Shown: positions 10,609-62,354, counted from the first letter of the stretch. The stretch is 64,000 bases of DNA from a virus (IMGVR_UViG_3300030004_000009:112704-176703), one strand, 5' to 3'. Notes: a model not told the origin generated them from the sequence alone. A program made the numbers and translations.

Positions 10609-10685
10609 TGCTCCCTCCTGAATTTGAATCAGGGACCTCCAAATTATGAGTTTGTTGCTCTAAAACCGGACTGAGCTAAGGGAGC
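10609..10685 (-). tRNA. tRNA-Met or Ile2 (CAU)
   Basis: GCTCCCT/AGGGAGC acceptor, GCTC/GAGC D-stem, CTCATAA loop, CCTGA-TTCAAAT-TCAGG. Confidence 0.9.
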
Positions 10686-22708: not shown

Positions 22709-23213
22709 TTTTTGTTTTAATTAATAGTTAAAGAGCATCTTACATAACAGAATACCTATTAAAATATCTTTTATGGCTCATTATGACGGATAGCTCTTTA
22801 ACTTGATTTATAGTAAACTTAAAAATAAGGGTCATCATTCACTGAATAAATATCGTCAATTGGGAATTCTTCACCTGTTGTAGCAATTGCTACTATCTCT
22901 CCATCAAGACCTAAGTGACAGCTATTAAATAGTAAAGGATAGTCAAAATGAAAGACAATTAGTTTATCACCTTCTTGTAATATCATCTCAACATCTCCTG
23001 TTCTATGTAGCTTAAAGCTACAGGTTTTGAAGTTGGTTGAATGTCATGAAAGCTAACTGTACAATTAGTCAGTTTTGAAGCATGATGTACAAACTGGTCT
23101 TTAGAGAGCTTTTCGTGTTGTTCTTCGCTTATGGTGAACACTTTGTTTCCATAAGCAGGAATGATAAAATATAACATGATCTCATTTATTTGGTTTTAAG
23201 TTTAATTAATAGT

Positions 23214-27080: not shown

Positions 27081-27485
27081 TTAATTAAGACCACTTATTA
27101 GACGTTCTTCAAGGTTTTCGTCTATAATGATTACATTTTTATATGCATCGATAGTCTCCAATTGTTTAATAAAAGAATTCCAATTATCAATACGCATTAC
27201 TGTTACACCTGTATTTAACTTTTGTGAAGCATACCTTGCAATATCGTAATCAATTTTATTACCTGTAGTAATAAGAAGTAGGTTTTGTTTACTTCTTTCA
27301 ACTAGTTCAATACCTTCGAGGTATTTAGTGTATAGTATACATCTATCGCCATCTTTATTAAAATATTGAATTGCTGCTGAGGTTTCAGTTAACTCAGTAA
27401 GAACACCTCTTATTATTTCTCCAACAAAGGATGCTTTGACTATATCTCCTACTTTAAGAGCTTCGTCGTTTTGGTTTTCTGTCAT
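27081..27485 (-). CDS. Hypothetical protein with SH3/KOW-like N-terminus
   Basis: LKVGDIVK..G. Confidence 0.55.
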   Translation of the reverse strand: MTENQNDEALKVGDIVKASFVGEIIRGVLTELTETSAAIQYFNKDGDRCILYTKYLEGIELVERSKQNLLLITTGNKIDYDIARYASQKLNTGVTVMRIDNWNSFIKQLETIDAYKNVIIIDENLEERLISGLN

Positions 27486-27762
27486 GATTTATAATTGTTT
27501 TGTTTGGTTACTTGATTTGAAACTCCTTGAAGACCGAGACTATAAGAGAGTCTATCTAAGAGTTAATTAACTATTGATTATCATTGATTTTTTATTTAAT
27601 AAAGAACGATTTACAGTCTCAATATCATTAAGGAGTGAGGCATCACCCTCACTCCAAACCAAATAACAGTTAGAATCTAGGGTTCTAACTACCGATCATG
27701 AGAAACAGTGAATACGTTACAGATGCGACCTGTGTAACTCCTGATAGTACGTATTAGTGCTA

Positions 27763-27921
27763 TTAGTCAGCTCCTTGATGACTTTTATTGTGATTTACCG
27801 GTCTGAATTTCTTTTTTTCTTTTTGTTTCTTATTTGCATATTCTGTTTTTAATTCGTCTGTTGTCATGTCACGATGAGTTGTACCTTGTACTTTTGTTTC
27901 ATCTTTCTTATTACTTGCCAT
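27763..27921 (-). CDS. Small basic protein
   Basis: MASNKKDETK... with A-rich leader; start revised to 27921. Confidence 0.5.
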   Translation of the reverse strand: MASNKKDETKVQGTTHRDMTTDELKTEYANKKQKEKKKFRPVNHNKSHQGAD

Positions 27922-28049
27922 TGTGTATTTTGTATTAAACTGTAATTGGAAGAATATGCATAGACAAACTCCCTGGCTTTTTGTTTTATTACAGTTAGAC
28001 AAGAGATAAGGATCTGAGCCTATACACCTAAAGTGTCTCTTGTGGAAAG

Positions 28050-28148
28050 TTACGCATTGTTACGTACCCTTCTTCTACTCATTCCAATAGCCACCACTAT
28101 GATAGCTATAATAGGCAAGAGTTGTGCTGTTAGTCCAATCCATAACAT
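28050..28148 (-). CDS. 32-aa single-TM peptide (MLWIGLTAQLLPIIAIIVVAIGMSRRRVRNNA)
   Basis: Hand translation; A-rich leader, TM helix plus basic tail. Confidence 0.5.
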   Translation of the reverse strand: MLWIGLTAQLLPIIAIIVVAIGMSRRRVRNNA

Positions 28149-28171
28149 TGTAGTGTTTTTGAGATTAATAG

Positions 28172-29410
28172 ATTTATCATTATCTCAGACTTTAGCGTGA
28201 GATGTTAGTTTAATTGCTGTCCTTTAAAGACATTTAAATACCTAAGTATACAATCTATCACCTTATTAATGATAAATGAGCTACTATAGTTTCTTCAGGA
28301 TTTGGTATAAACATATTACTTGCTCAAGGTAATATAAAAGTCCCCATTGTTAGCTCCTGATTGCTTCATTTGTCTTTTGAGTACAAGGCCCAGTTCTACA
28401 TTTTTACAAATGATTATAAAGGTGAGAGTTTGCAACCTCTTTTCCTACTGTAGAATGGCACACACTTAATGTAAATGAGAGAAGCTAGGTCTCAGCGGCC
28501 TAGCTATTACAACGATAAACTCTCATTTTTTAATATTATGAAGCACTCTGTTATAGCTTATTACTAAGACTAATACACTATGAATCATAATTTTTTAACA
28601 GGAATAGTTTACTCACCTGTTGATGCTTGGACACTCTCAAGCTTTGTCTTAGTGGGTTCTTTCAATGTATTACTACATCGTGAAATCTTATAAAGATCTA
28701 TCACACACCTCATACTTGGATACAAGGTTGTTCATTTATAGCACTCCAAGATACTACTTATTGAACTAACTACACTGAGACCCTAGATTCTATCTCACAT
28801 TCGGATTATTAGGTATTGTAGTTATATTTTAAAAACAGAGCTCATGACGAAAACCCGGCGTAGTAAACTACAGTCATGGTAACATATCTCTATATAATTC
28901 GAAGCGGTTTTGCACTCTGTTTAAATTTTCAAACTCAAAGCTCTTATTTAAGTACTATACAGCTAGACGTATACATAGCTTTTATTTGTATAGGTTCTGT
29001 TCTCTGAACAACCGCCATTACTTAAATAGCTTTCTTTGAGTTATATTTTAATATAATTACTCGTTCTAAATAACTGTTGAATAAATCCTTCCTGATCTAC
29101 TGCTTACTTCAATTATTGACGAGTAATTATATTTTTTAATCTTTGATACCTTTTAAGTAGTAAATGTAACGTGGAGGTGTTAGTAATTTCTTATATGTAT
29201 AAATTTTTTAAAGCTCCAACTACGTACGTAGCCTTGCTAGTACGAATAACGCTGTCCTAATAAAAGTTAGGAGCCTATGGGATTCTGCTACTGTTTACCC
29301 CACCATTTTACTGGAAACCCCGGTTATCCTTTTGGCCCGGAAGGTCAGCTTTAGGTTATCAACCCTACATTTAGACTAAGCAAGCCTAGTCGGAGATAAG
29401 CCCGACTCGT
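28172..29410 (-). ncRNA. Array of about 10 consecutive end-paired structured RNA domains
   Basis: 1.25 kb without a 60-aa ORF; successive closing stems separated by AT-rich linkers. Confidence 0.5.
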
Positions 29411-29413
29411 ATC

Positions 29414-29695
29414 TTATATGCACTCAAATAAGTTGTCTAGCCATTTATGATCTTTGATATCTAGTGCATGTTGTTTTAATACCTGTTCTTTCTCTTCTTC
29501 ACTTGACCATGTAAGTAATTGTGATGCAGGATTTGGTGTTCCAGCATAGATGTCTAAAGCTATCATAAATGGTAACTCTTTTGATCTGCATAATTCTTTG
29601 ATGGTTTCATTATGATGATACGCTTTGTATAGAATTACAATACCTCGTTTACCTTCTGTCTTGATCTCTAATGCATCTGCTATTTCTGTGTTCAT
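29414..29695 (-). CDS. Hypothetical protein
   Basis: Start revised to ATG 29695 because the longer frame overlaps tRNA-Glu. Confidence 0.6.
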   Translation of the reverse strand: MNTEIADALEIKTEGKRGIVILYKAYHHNETIKELCRSKELPFMIALDIYAGTPNPASQLLTWSSEEEKEQVLKQHALDIKDHKWLDNLFECI

Positions 29696-29717
29696 GACTA
29701 TTTGGTTTAAATGTAAG

Positions 29718-29791
29718 TATAGTGTATGGGACTTGAACCCATGATCTTCACATTGAAAATGTGACGTCTTAACCAGCTTGACCAACACTAC
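29718..29791 (-). tRNA. tRNA-Glu(UUC)
   Basis: GTAGTGT/ACACTAT, GTC/GAC, TCACA-TTTTCAA-TGTGA, ATGGG-TTCAAGT-CCCAT. Confidence 0.88.
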
Positions 29792-29840
29792 ATGACTTGC
29801 CCTCCTTATTAAAAGGTGAAACTAGTATAAAGATTTAAAG

Positions 29841-29928
29841 TAAACCATATGCAATTCGAATGCAAACCTCCTTTCGACGTCGTTACAGGTGTTCTCTGAC
29901 TGAGTAGCCAGCTTAAACTAATGGTTTA
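29841..29928 (-). ncRNA. tRNA-like element TL4
   Basis: TAAACCAT/ATGGTTTA, GTTT/GAAC with an enlarged D-loop, enlarged anticodon loop, TGCA-TTCGAAT-TGCA. Confidence 0.6.
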
Positions 29929-30001
29929 ATTGTACAGTAGTACAATGTGGTTTTGGCCCAACATTTAGTTGTAGGCACTTTGTTTTTCATGTTACTTGAT
30001 T

Positions 30002-30382
30002 TTATTGCCACTCTCTTCCTTTTATTAATGCAATACCTAACGGTTTTGAATCTACTACAAATTGCCATGTGTAATCTGTAACCATCCATAACTTATCACA
30101 CGTTAAATCATAAGAACAAAATGTAAGTCCATTTGAAGTAGCTTTATAATTATAAAGCTTCCATCTTATTTGATCTTTATCTCTAACTAATTGTGTTAAT
30201 TTATAGATTATTTGGTTATAAACCACGTTATCAATTTGTATTGTGTTGCGTTTAATTTCAGTACTATATGTTGGTTCTGCTCTACTCATCTTCTTTTGAG
30301 GAAGTTGTAAGCCCTCGAACTGTTCATTAATTGGCCATAAAACAAATAGAAAAACGCTTTGATTAATTAGTGGTTTTTTCAT
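30002..30382 (-). CDS. Hypothetical protein
   Basis: 126 aa ORF. Confidence 0.55.
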   Translation of the reverse strand: MKKPLINQSVFLFVLWPINEQFEGLQLPQKKMSRAEPTYSTEIKRNTIQIDNVVYNQIIYKLTQLVRDKDQIRWKLYNYKATSNGLTFCSYDLTCDKLWMVTDYTWQFVVDSKPLGIALIKGREWQ

Positions 30383-30399
30383 GTTATTTAGTTTTACAT

Positions 30400-30458
30400 T
30401 TAGCTGATGGCTCTTAGCTGATGGCTCTTAGCTGATGGCTCTTAGCTGATGGCTCTTA
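30400..30458. repeat. Perfect tandem repeat (TTAGCTGATGGCTC) x4
   Basis: Four identical 14-mers without spacers. Confidence 0.95.
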
Positions 30459-30463
30459 AAGTA

Positions 30464-30489
30464 AGGAGTTAGTATTGCTACTAACTCCT
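30464..30489 (-). repeat. GCAA-tetraloop hairpin family, copy 1
   Basis: AGGAGTTAGTA-GCAA-TACTAACTCCT. Confidence 0.8.
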
Positions 30490-30870
30490 AATTGAATGAA
30501 AAGATAATAAAAGAAATAAACTATAATAGTGATTGTAATGTTTGAAAGTTTAATTAAATATTTTGTTTGACGTGTTTTACGTTCTAAAATCATTTATTAA
30601 TCTTCCTGTAACGCTACAATTCGTTATAGGCTAATAAAGAGGAGTAAACTCTCTACCGTAACTTGACCTTTACTCTTCATTAGTTAATTATAAATGCTAC
30701 CTTTATTACTCTGTTGAGTATAATTAAGCCGTGTCGCTATATGCTATCCTGTGACTCATTTATAATTAAATATTTAGTGATCGTAACATTTGTATTAAGG
30801 TTACAATTCGTTATAGAATCAGTAACTAAGATAGTTCCCACTATTCTTTCTAACTTAGTTAACAAACGGT

Positions 30871-30946
30871 TGGTTACACATTATGGATTTGAACCACAAT
30901 CAAGAGAACCAAAATCTCCTATCCTAGCCAGTTGGACGAATGTGCA
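30871..30946 (-). tRNA. tRNA-Gln(UUG)
   Basis: TGCACAT/ATGTGTA-A-CCA, GGAGA-TTTTGGT-TCTCT, TGTGG-TTCAAAT-CCATA. Confidence 0.88.
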
Positions 30947-31384
30947 ATTTAACTTTAAGAATAATATAATTACTGCTTATGAGGATTAAGGTAATACTCA
31001 TAAGCTACCACCAGCCATCCATCTCAAGTACCCACATGTGACCATCCTTAAGGTTTTACATATAGTAATCTTGGTTCCTCACTATACTATTCTTTTAACT
31101 TAGAATTGCTATTATGATTCCTATTACTAAAAAAAGTAAAAAGATTAATAGACATTCTTTGAATGTTTGTGGATCAGGGTAAGTCGTCATCTTCTATAAG
31201 TTTTTTAATTAAATATCGAATAGTTAAACCTGTTCCTACTATAAGTACAGCTAATGTACCTAGAATGTAATAAAATATTTCCATTGACTTTGTTTTTAAT
31301 GGTTATCGTAGCCATTATAATAAATCCATGCTTTTAGACATAGAATACAAGTATAAACAAGTGCTACGATTAATAAAAGATAGA

Positions 31385-32431: not shown

Positions 32432-32457
32432 GGAGTTTAGTATTGCTACTAAACTCC
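32432..32457 (-). repeat. GCAA-tetraloop hairpin family, copy 2
   Basis: GGAGTTTAGTA-GCAA-TACTAAACTCC. Confidence 0.8.
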
Positions 32458-33593: not shown

Positions 33594-34290
33594 AACAGGA
33601 ATAGCTTCTTCACCTGTATATAGATATACCTTCTACGCGTGCGACTTAATGAGATATCCTTTGTGTAGTTTCAACACTTCTCCCTGCTAGGGTTGTTTAG
33701 ATTTAAGGGAATAGTTTTCTCACCCTTTATATTACCACTCATCAGGATTCATAGCCTGTGGTAACTTTGCATACTCTTTCAATGCTCTAACTTGTTTTGT
33801 GTGGATAGTTATTTAAGGTTTTCTCTATCCCAGCAACCAGGCTTCTACTATTTTTGATTTCAGTGGTTCAGCTTATTCCCACTTCTTCTTGTTTCTCGTT
33901 ATTTGCTTTCATTGGTACAAGTCAATTAAGCTCAACAATTTGTCCTTCATTGTGTTAGTCTTCCCTCTTGGACTACAGAGTGTAATTAAACGCACCGTCT
34001 CCGATTTACACGGATCATAACAACTATCTTATAAATTGCTGTTATAATGGCTCAAGGTCGCTTAGTTGTCTTTTAAACAACATAACTGATGCGTATTTTT
34101 GGCCTTTGCACTACACTTCTTAGCCTGTGTTAGGGTGAGATTGATTACTCACTTGGTCGCTGGCCCAGCTGTTTACTGGCTTTTTAACTGATTGGTTAAA
34201 TAATACATGCATTAGCTAACTTGAAAAGAGTTAGCGGTGATTAATAAATGTCTCACAACATTAATGGCTGTTCATAAACTAGCTTAATTA
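33594..34290 (-). ncRNA. Candidate large (about 700 nt) ornate ncRNA
   Basis: No 60-aa ORF, many hairpins, two T-loop-like hairpins, lies immediately 3' of a tRNA-like element. Confidence 0.55.
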
Positions 34291-34294
34291 GAGC

Positions 34295-34402
34295 AAATGA
34301 GTCGAGATTCGAACTCAATGAAACGTGATAGTTAAATAAAAAACGATGTATGAACTATGGAAACAAAAACTCTTAACTATCTATTCCTTTCCTACCTCAT
34401 TT
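34295..34402 (-). ncRNA. tRNA-like element TL5
   Basis: AAATGAG/CTCATTT, T-arm TTGAG-TTCGAAT-CTCGA, 9-bp stem GATAGTTAA/TTAACTATC around a 37-nt loop; no D-stem. Confidence 0.6.
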
Positions 34403-34404
34403 AA

Positions 34405-34522
34405 TTAAACACTAAACTATGTATAATTCCTGCCAACGGAAGCTATTATCACCAACAATTGCCGGCAAAGTCCGCACGCCGTATTAATGGACTTACAAAT
34501 TATACTATAGTTTAGTGTTTAA
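34405..34522. ncRNA. Long inverted-repeat element with GC-rich interior
   Basis: 16-bp plus 8-bp perfect arms TTAAACACTAAACTAT-GTATAATT and AATTATAC-T-ATAGTTTAGTGTTTAA. Confidence 0.55.
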
Positions 34523-34548
34523 AGAGTTAGATATTGCTATCTAACTCT
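34523..34548 (-). repeat. GCAA-tetraloop hairpin family, copy 3
   Basis: AGAGTTAGATA-GCAA-TATCTAACTCT. Confidence 0.8.
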
Positions 34549-34555
34549 GTGTTTG

Positions 34556-35035
34556 TTATTCAATGATTTCACCTAACAACCACTCGCGAATGTCAAGAAG
34601 TAAGAACTTCTGAGCAATGTAAGTGTCTGGATTAAAGTTACCAATTCGGTGATTTGGATTTGTCTCAATCCTTTCTGCATTTGCTTTCTCTTTACCCGAT
34701 TCTTCATCACGTTCTTCTTCACAATGTTTCATTCTTGCTTCAAGCCATTTGCGCATTAACATGACTTCAACACGGTTGAGTTCAATGTGAAACATAGCTT
34801 CGTCTTTAATGTCGTAATACGCCTTTTCAAGTGCATAATGACTTAATTTACGAAAGAGAGTGTTTGCTTCATCACTTGTTAGTTTATGATGAAAGACGCC
34901 AAGTAAGATTTGCCTTACTGAAAACAATGACAATGTGAAGAGTGCTGAAATGTTGAAATTTACGTATCTAGGTTCGTTAACGGTTTGTACGTTTGAGGTT
35001 TTAAAGCCTGTTAATGGGATGTTTGATGTGTTCAT
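34556..35035 (-). CDS. Early hypothetical protein
   Basis: 159 aa, two AACCAAATAATC leader motifs. Confidence 0.65.
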   Translation of the reverse strand: MNTSNIPLTGFKTSNVQTVNEPRYVNFNISALFTLSLFSVRQILLGVFHHKLTSDEANTLFRKLSHYALEKAYYDIKDEAMFHIELNRVEVMLMRKWLEARMKHCEEERDEESGKEKANAERIETNPNHRIGNFNPDTYIAQKFLLLDIREWLLGEIIE

Positions 35036-35403: not shown

Positions 35404-35811
35404 GATCTTTGATGTTTTTAATATGATGTTATTTGGTTATTTGGTTATTTACTCTTTTGGATATTAACACTCCCTTACTCCTATTTTATTTAAACAATTG
35501 TTTAAAACAACTTTTAATAGTCTGAAAGGTGATTTGTGGTTTTATTTTCATTCATCGTAATATTACGATTGATCGAAAAATGATCATTTTTGAACGAAAT
35601 TGAGCACTTAAATTTACACCACCAAGTTAAAAATAGACTTAGTTCCGTTTTTAGACTAATGGAGTGGATGTGTACTACAAGCTTGTATTTGATCTACGAG
35701 ATTCTCGTAATTGAAAATAACCGCTATGTCGATCGACTATTCCATTCATTTCAATTACAAAATTAACACTCTCAAGTCCATACTAGACATGAGAGTAAGA
35801 AAAGAGAAAGC

Positions 35812-37308: not shown

Positions 37309-37581
37309 TGTAGTGATTTTTTAAGATTAATGAATAAATAAATGATTTGTACGGAAGATGGTGAGGGGGTAACAAACTGACCTCTTGAAATGACACCTCC
37401 TTACACATGATTTTTAAAAATTTTATAAAAAATAAAAAATAATATATATAAAAAATTTTATAGAAGGATGAGGCTTATATCAGAGTCATAGAATCAAAAA
37501 GACCTAAAACTAAATAATAGCTTTTTATTTTTTGAAATTTCATAAGTTTAGAATTTGTGACTTAATCTATTTAAAACTAAA

Positions 37582-37613
37582 TTTGCTATTTTCAATTATT
37601 TTTAGTATCTTTA
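37582..37613 (+). promoter_or_regulatory. Bacteroidota housekeeping-type promoter (variant)
   Basis: TTTG-N20-TATCTTTA ending 3 nt before ATG 37617. Confidence 0.55.
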
Positions 37614-38267: not shown

Positions 38268-38299
38268 TTTGGAAATGTCAAAAAATTTTCTTATATTTG
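38268..38299 (+). promoter_or_regulatory. Bacteroidota -33/-7 promoter
   Basis: TTTG-N20-TATATTTG. Confidence 0.8.
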
Positions 38300-39547: not shown

Positions 39548-39579
39548 TTTGGTAGTTTCAGTATTATTTAGTATCTTTG
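39548..39579 (+). promoter_or_regulatory. Bacteroidota -33/-7 promoter
   Basis: TTTG-N20-TATCTTTG. Confidence 0.8.
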
Positions 39580-62322: not shown

Positions 62323-62354
62323 TTTGGTTAAATCAAATAATAGTATTATATTTG
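62323..62354 (+). promoter_or_regulatory. Bacteroidota -33/-7 promoter
   Basis: TTTG-N20-TATATTTG. Confidence 0.8.

Follow-up and report, generated by a model that had tools for sequence, protein, structure and literature searches.

A gene-free, inverted-repeat-rich stretch with a strain-variable 585-nt block in the early arm of an environmental crAss-like phage

The locus lies in a 64-kb window that forms the end of an IMG/VR virus record of 176.7 kb (86% complete); all coordinates refer to this window. The large terminase shares 25 to 41% identity with terminases from crAss-like phages of Bacteroides, Flavobacterium, and relatives, and the source is an environmental, uncultivated crAss-like phage. 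Such phages rank with the most abundant known. Between 1 and 37.3 kb, genes are carried on the minus strand and are small and mostly orphan, with four tRNA genes and a tmRNA gene interspersed. From 37.6 kb onward the plus strand carries the genes, those of the packaging and structural modules among them. Matches to the Bacteroidota-type promoter consensus (TTTG, 17 to 23 nt, TAnnTTTG) were found upstream of plus-strand genes only (37554-37585, 38268-38299, 39548-39579, and 62323-62354, each with plus-strand genes just downstream) and not once in the minus-strand arm. This confinement speaks for a host from the Bacteroidota and for the minus-strand genes being read by a different polymerase. 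In many of the latter, located between 27 and 36 kb, the ATG is immediately preceded by a common leader word. Together with the plus-only promoters, this common word argues that the minus-strand block is the early arm; its transcription by a virion RNA polymerase, as in the Cellulophaga crAss-like phage phi14:2, would fit this arrangement. Throughout the genome, we also noticed a family of short intergenic hairpins with 11- to 15-bp arms, which contain a GAGTTAG-like word, and 2- to 6-nt loops (for example, 30464-30489, 32432-32457, and 34523-34548). They are probably the usual gene-end terminators of this phage, and none is located within the stretch described below.

In the early arm, between a 93-aa early gene (29414-29695, minus strand), which is preceded by tRNA-Glu (29718-29791), and a 32-aa hydrophobic, membrane-type micro-ORF (28050-28148, minus strand), lies an ORF-free, inverted-repeat-rich stretch of 1.27 kb (28149-29413, minus strand). 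It is co-oriented with the tRNA, tmRNA, and small early genes. In line with the sequence-only reading of 28172-29410, no ORF of 60 aa or more is present in 28003-29413; the gene-free part was obtained by subtracting the plausible 32-aa micro-ORF from this interval. The highest G+C content of the stretch is reached in 29140-29412. No recognizable or canonical terminator was found after the 93-aa gene on the minus strand, and because the tRNA abuts this gene as well, co-transcription is likely. The 32-aa micro-ORF and the first early gene (37308) have almost the same leader: on the minus strand, 28149-28174 and 37309-37333 are nearly identical over approximately 24 nt, which suggests a duplicated gene-start module.

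The stretch is non-coding. In every frame, log-odds from a codon model trained with 99 long phage ORFs lay between -5 and -50 per 120 nt, similar to the tmRNA gene, compared to +8 to +20 for the flanking genes. A recoded gene was ruled out by the frequent use of all three stop codons in all six frames. A decayed gene was rejected as well, as no coding bias was detected and no similarity was found to the phage's own genes, to those of the related phage G001, or to the neighbors of 93-aa homologues elsewhere. At 28795-28815 (minus strand), an early-gene leader with two mismatches to the leader word is followed by an ATG and an immediate TGA. By its sequence, this is a dead gene start, standing at the head of the part that the stretch has in common with a different strain (L025; see below).

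To quantify inverted repeats, perfect arms with a span of up to 160 were counted and compared with 400 dinucleotide shuffles. Eleven repeats of at least 8 bp were observed, compared to 3.9 +/- 2.0 in shuffles (P 0.005), and six of at least 9 bp, compared to 1.1 (P 0.0025). The longest arm measured 15 bp, whereas the longest across all 400 shuffles was 13 bp. Their density was 4.3 to 4.7 per kb; coding DNA of this genome has 0.77 and its ORF-free DNA as a whole 1.34, the latter being generally richer in inverted repeats than coding DNA. Among 1.3-kb windows of the 176.7-kb genome, the top-scoring one for inverted repeats contains the stretch. All seven arm pairs quoted in the sequence-only reading were present at about the places given. 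Its claim of consecutive helix-closed units held for the set, which exceeded chance; individually, three or four units stood out clearly, one of them absent from its list. The remaining claimed helices did not rise above shuffle level; these comprise TCAGGA, CATTTGT, and 28831-28923, about half of the claimed units, and segment 29140-29412 behaved likewise. The proposed back-to-back layout was clean for 28831-29133 and not elsewhere. The units are indeed of unrelated sequence, with direct repeats that are short and two-copy only, and no like units recur at regular spacing, in line with the earlier view that this is neither a CRISPR array nor a tandem repeat. Every unit is single-copy, with no further copies elsewhere in the genome.

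The modules, all given on the minus strand, were scored individually against dinucleotide shuffles. The resulting z-scores (minus/plus strand) are somewhat flattered, since units were chosen by their arms. The strongest signal was obtained for the module with 15-bp perfect arms, the longest in the stretch (29050-29133; -7.15/-5.83), which on the minus strand extends to an irregular hairpin of roughly 30 bp. Adjacent to it, a module with two nested closing helices of 9 and 10 bp (28931-29043) reached -3.49/-5.03. The next one, closed by an 8-bp helix (28831-28923), was not above shuffles (-1.1/-1.0). A 9-bp closing helix around a G+C-rich hairpin of 7 to 9 bp (28473-28529) scored -2.88/-5.04 and, on the minus strand, leads into a U-rich tail. 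The module with 11-bp perfect closing arms (28172-28277) was borderline at -2.10/-1.35. An irregular hairpin that the sequence-only reading did not list (28536-28600; -2.75/-2.43) overlaps a 21-codon ORF with a gene-like leader (28588-28523).

Summed over twelve segments, z amounted to approximately -24 on each strand. These equal sums indicate that the excess stability derives from perfect Watson-Crick arms. They are uninformative on strand, or on RNA versus DNA, and fit a DNA-level or recent mutational origin as well as an RNA-level one. Two hairpins, 29050-29133 and 34405-34522, were distinctly more stable on the minus strand by virtue of G-U pairs, and two others favored the plus strand. 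When the two halves of the stretch were folded as whole parts, z-scores of -2.3 and -2.05 were obtained. Sliding 150-nt z-scores were weak even over the true tRNA-Glu gene; therefore, their silence elsewhere says little. Other long stem-closed hairpins occur in the early arm at 34405-34522, 22726-22803, and 30684-30769, with z-scores from -3.3 to -6.0. The first of these belongs to a second ORF-free gap of the early arm (33614-34555, 942 nt), which is G+C-richer and gave no Rfam matches at E up to 5. In this gap, a short terminator-like hairpin comes first, directly followed by the 118-nt hairpin with 16-bp perfect arms (34405-34522), for which folding energies of -43 kcal/mol on the minus strand and -33 on the plus strand were calculated (z -6.0).

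The recurrence of linkers between units proved stronger than first described. It comprises a 13-nt exact repeat and an enriched minus-strand word. One copy of the repeat (28820-28832, minus strand) marks the downstream edge of the accessory block described below, and the other (29039-29051, minus strand) separates two modules. TTAAAAAAT was counted four times on the minus strand of the stretch compared to 0.06 expected, an enrichment that is strand-specific and in the sense of the early genes; four of the nine minus-strand copies of the whole genome fall in the stretch. The copy at 29131-29139 is positioned immediately 5' of the 15-bp-arm module, and the others are at 29203-29211, 28590-28598, and 28525-28533, all on the minus strand. 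Exact copies of the 12-nt linker word number two in the entire 64 kb. Many ordinary gene starts of this phage are preceded by a similar, TTAAAA-type context, which weakens the reading of the linker word as a dedicated cleavage site. Judging from this likeness, it may be a gene-boundary signal rather than a cleavage site.

The locus was present at 99.2 to 100% identity in approximately 20 contigs drawn from ENA, JGI, and Logan assemblies, including bog-type JGI samples; this is too little variation for covariation. Positions 28829-29413 showed no change among these near-identical contigs, which come from different samples and of which more than a dozen contain the full stretch. A 1.8-kb contig of a different strain, L025, was without exactly 28829-29413 (585 nt, end points ambiguous by about 3 nt). 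The missing block (minus strand) begins immediately behind the 93-aa stop codon, and its other end is at the base of the final module in an adjacent set of three. It is composed of a 280-nt G+C-richer part without fold signal, followed by three stem-closed modules. In L025, the junction falls in the linker word, and the 93-aa stop codon is followed by the linker, the degenerate leader, and ATG-TGA. Mis-assembly is not the cause of this junction, since the common word is too short at the k-mer sizes used. Identity to L025 was 96.3% over tRNA-Glu and the 93-aa gene and 99.3% over 27718-28831, and this shift in divergence at the junction points to recombination there. As L025 is without 585 nt of whole modules, at least half of the stretch is dispensable and modular. 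The few substitutions in L025 were non-compensatory for the one long-range pairing that was checked by hand, and at 28282-28286 a clustered change affected four of five nucleotides. The 585-nt block is flanked by an imperfect 8-nt direct repeat and possesses no terminal inverted repeats.

Searches for relatives of the stretch were negative throughout. No DNA homologues were found in 50,697 phage records, the rest of the phage's own genome, or two related IMG/VR records. Pattern scans of IMG/VR and metagenomes returned no homologue, the 16 metagenome pattern matches being due to chance. Neither IMG/VR nor 185,579 species genomes contained a copy of the 15-bp-arm unit, and the latter yielded one 20-mer match without extension. 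The sRNAs proposed by the sequence-only reading corresponded to no Rfam family (Rfam 15, 4227 models) in a scan of 27400-31200 at gathering score and at E up to 5. The only matches, two tRNAs and two chance matches, were outside the stretch, and GOLLD, ROOL, group I introns, ribozymes, and tmRNA were not among them. ARAGORN detected no tRNA-like fold in the stretch at default and 90% thresholds. At 80%, two poor matches appeared (28414-28511, minus strand; 29157-29244, plus strand) with mismatched stems and no T-loop consensus, and tRNA remnants inside the stems were ruled out for want of an acceptable match. Integron attC-like sites were discarded by eye, as the core-site consensus was absent.

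The surroundings of the stretch differ between relatives. Among the flanking proteins, that of 134 aa had no relatives and that of 323 aa had none in IMG/VR. On four contigs carrying homologues of the 93-aa gene, a coding gene is situated 100 to 210 nt downstream, and no ORF-free stretch is present. The syntenic 105-kb record G001, with 40 to 70% protein identity in the conserved modules, has nothing in common with 17-36.7 kb of the window and no ORF-free gap larger than 0.5 kb there. Taken with the strain comparison, these sequence data point to a stretch that is young, lineage-specific, and partly dispensable. In one distant relative, the 93-aa homologue is followed by a sequence (L050:449-913) that is 41% identical to the 159-aa gene 34556-35035, located 5 kb away in the present phage; this neighbor indicates that gene order in the early arm is fluid.

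The closest precedent by position is phi14:2. Two long early-arm intergenic regions of this phage are transcribed above most genes and, unlike early mRNAs, persist through infection; their function is unknown (bioRxiv 10.1101/2020.03.07.982082). These regions are the g004-g005 and g005-g006 junctions (Drobysheva et al., bioRxiv 10.1101/2020.03.07.982082). In the same work, the virion polymerase was assayed in vitro on denatured phi14:2 DNA, and the early transcripts were without a common upstream motif (bioRxiv 10.1101/2020.03.07.982082). We located both regions in NC_021806 (L033). Like our stretch, they belong to a phage of the same order, are ORF-poor over 0.7 to 1.7 kb of the early arm, are co-oriented with early genes, and are near a tmRNA. 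However, they have no sequence similarity to the stretch. The g004-g005 region (L033:2905-3589) had no Rfam match, a few 9-bp inverted repeats, and a z-score of -0.3; thus, it is without fold excess and has fewer perfect inverted repeats than the stretch. The g005-g006 region (L033:4031-4502) matched the Rfam tmRNA model over its full length (46 bits, with a gathering score of 47; E 2.6e-16), whereas the stretch matched nothing. In addition, transcription has been shown for phi14:2, whereas the stretch is known from its sequence. Given a phi14:2 region without fold signal and the lack of sequence similarity, the analogy is positional only. Judging from phi14:2 itself, ORF-free early-arm stretches of crAss-like phages can be abundant stable RNAs.

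Structured RNAs of better-known systems offer further comparisons. Like other large RNAs such as GOLLD and ROOL, the stretch is ORF-free and tRNA-proximal in a phage genome, but it shows no sign of a single large conserved fold and matched none of the 4227 Rfam models at E up to 5. In the T7 early transcript, RNase III processing hairpins separate protein genes, and leader-trailer helices are found in rRNA operons. Modules 29050-29133 and 28931-29043 are of the size of these long irregular helices of about 20 to 30 bp between polycistronic units. In contrast to T7, nothing coding lies between the helices of the stretch, cleavage there is hypothetical, and the host is presumed to be a member of the Bacteroidota. 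The stable RNAs C and D of T4 are two defined RNAs within the tRNA gene cluster that are conserved among relatives. A likeness may be proposed in that small, stable non-tRNA RNAs would be processed out of the early or middle transcript that also yields phage tRNAs. However, the T4 RNAs are conserved and defined, whereas the stretch has no conservation and its products are hypothetical.

On balance, and tentatively, we read the stretch as an accessory non-coding segment of the early transcript whose hairpins are RNA processing or stability modules. We infer its transcription, the strand, an RNA-level function, and cleavage. The stretch would be read through together with tRNA-Glu, the 93-aa gene, and the small ORFs. 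Its long near-perfect stems would serve as RNA processing or stability elements, acting as RNase III-type double-stranded substrates and 3'-end caps, and the single-stranded A/U-rich linkers would be likely RNase E/G-type cut sites. Hairpin-capped fragments or a stable long non-coding RNA would be the products. Modules would be gained and lost whole through recombination at the linker word, and at least the 585-nt half is not essential. This reading is supported by the non-coding status of the stretch, inverted repeats that are three to five times denser than in shuffles or other ORF-free DNA, the linker enrichment, three or four modules with z-scores of -3 to -7, the tRNA, tmRNA, and hairpin context of the early arm, and the phi14:2 precedent. 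It is weakened by the absence of homologues, strand-equal stability, shuffle-like behavior of half of the units, and the dispensability of half of the stretch. The model of the sequence-only reading, in which a polycistronic cassette of different sRNAs is processed at AU-rich linkers, is thereby partly supported, namely, in its non-coding nature, its stem-closed modules, a strand-specific A/U-rich linker, and a strain difference of whole modules; that each unit would be cut out as a separate sRNA goes beyond these features. The sequence features first noted were largely borne out and hold up statistically. The 585-nt presence/absence polymorphism, the strand specificity of the linker enrichment, the strand symmetry of the fold signal, and the absence of the stretch in all relatives are new.

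Neutral spacer DNA, though doubtful when considered by itself, is nearly as likely as the RNA-level reading. The stretch would then be residue of a hyperplastic early region, made up of defunct gene boundaries and scars left by recombination, functionless and at most passively transcribed. Its repeats would have arisen, with similarly guarded probability, from template-switch or palindrome-forming mutations against which there was no selection. Lineage specificity, with no counterpart in any relative, and a natural strain missing the 585-nt half speak for such an origin, as do perfect arms with a strand-symmetric signal. The degenerate leader with ATG-TGA at 28795-28815, another leader-like word without ATG near 28200, and the likeness of the linker to ordinary gene-start contexts would represent the remains of gene boundaries, and in L025 the clustered 28282-28286 change has the look of a multi-nucleotide template event. 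Inverted repeats are generally commoner in ORF-free than in coding DNA of this genome; however, their density here is three times that of other ORF-free DNA, and the linker word is enriched 60-fold on one strand. Moreover, neither a leftover coding signal nor a protein similarity that would betray a decayed gene was detected, and although phage genomes are compact, more than a dozen contigs keep the full stretch with the accessory block unchanged.

The remaining explanations appear less probable. Cassettes acting at the DNA level in regulation or recombination, that is, gene-less analogues of the promoter-plus-stem-loop cassettes (PeSLs) in hyperplastic regions of T4-type phages, are a rather improbable account. 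Here, the linker would be a polymerase start signal and the stem a terminator or pause site, and recombination at linkers would shuffle the modules. The stems are long-range, with 54 to 90 nt between arms, and mutually different rather than short conserved terminators, and at such large arm spacers cruciform extrusion is unlikely. The 12-nt linker word shows no genome-wide distribution, and sigma-70-like matches were as frequent as in shuffles (24 compared to 21.6), with no Bacteroidota-type promoter in the stretch. Nevertheless, one linker contains a perfect TATAAT, the same type of word precedes many genes, and structured DNA signals are conceivable where early transcripts have no common upstream motif, as in phi14:2. 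The likeness to PeSLs consists in short repeated boundary motifs and stem-loops in non-essential early DNA (PMC2839356, PMC4122927). Furthermore, close strains differ by whole modules with end points in a repeated motif, here the linker word, and PeSL-mediated gain and loss has been documented between 96%-identical T4-type phages (PMC2839356, PMC4122927). PeSLs, however, are conserved promoter-terminator pairs that flank ORFs, whereas the modules of the stretch hold no ORF and show no conserved promoter with a short terminator. A string of translated micro-ORFs, in line with the surrounding small-ORF host-takeover region, is very unlikely. It could draw on the 21-codon hydrophobic ORF 28588-28523 with its gene-like leader, whose stop overlaps the ATG of an 8-codon ORF, and on the real 32- and 52-aa genes just downstream. 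This is outweighed by strongly negative codon log-odds throughout, by a total of only seven minus-strand ATG ORFs of at least 10 codons, most without the phage's leader, and by gene callers, which made no consistent call in the stretch across approximately 20 contigs. We assign an equally low probability to MITE-like small mobile elements or a replication origin. Perfect terminal inverted repeats of 11 to 16 bp and a present/absent block with an imperfect 8-nt flanking repeat resemble the former. However, every unit is single-copy in the genome, the 15-bp-arm unit is without a copy in the collections named above, and the 585-nt block itself is not bounded by inverted repeats. An origin was rejected because iterons, an A+T peak, and a skew inflection were all absent from the stretch.

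A bolder form of the RNA-level reading, which we consider a long shot, would make the stretch an RNA "ORFanage", an array that varies between strains and consists of early non-coding RNAs that fold independently, each closed by its own helix. They would be freed at the A/U-rich linker and swapped between strains by recombination at the linker. Its partner might be an anti-leader element 500 nt downstream (27657-27668), and the RNAs might control early genes or engage host RNA-binding or defence factors. This element is the core of 27625-27700 (minus strand); nowhere else in the 64-kb window does the early-gene leader occur in antisense. Its minus-strand RNA contains a 12-nt word perfectly complementary to the leader at 35427-35438. 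With the consensus leader of at least seven early genes, 11 of 12 positions are paired, including one G-U. The word, itself single-stranded, is flanked by two 9-bp hairpins, one of which is G+C-rich and terminator-like, and follows closely on a 52-aa ORF (z -3.4). From this arrangement, the region is a candidate for a 3'-end-derived RNA that pairs with early leaders.

Early-arm expression of crAss-like phages is poorly understood, and their virion RNA polymerase has no known promoter motif. If processed hairpin RNAs are indeed produced, the stretch would be a second, structurally explicit early non-coding RNA locus and would indicate that gaining and losing modules is how such loci evolve. Should it instead be neutral spacer, it cautions that dense perfect inverted repeats in ORF-free phage DNA are not by themselves evidence of RNA genes.

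Three minor observations concern the early arm outside the stretch. A 14-nt tandem repeat (30427-30454) upstream of a 126-aa gene varies in copy number, with seven strain contigs missing 28 nt (two units). Between this gene and tRNA-Glu, a tRNA-like element (29840-29927, minus strand) combines a perfect 7-bp acceptor stem and a T-arm with an aberrant anticodon region; it was matched by ARAGORN at 80% thresholds only and gave no match in Rfam. Finally, 10609-10685 (minus strand) is a tRNA according to Rfam (60 bits) that is absent from the default ARAGORN output.
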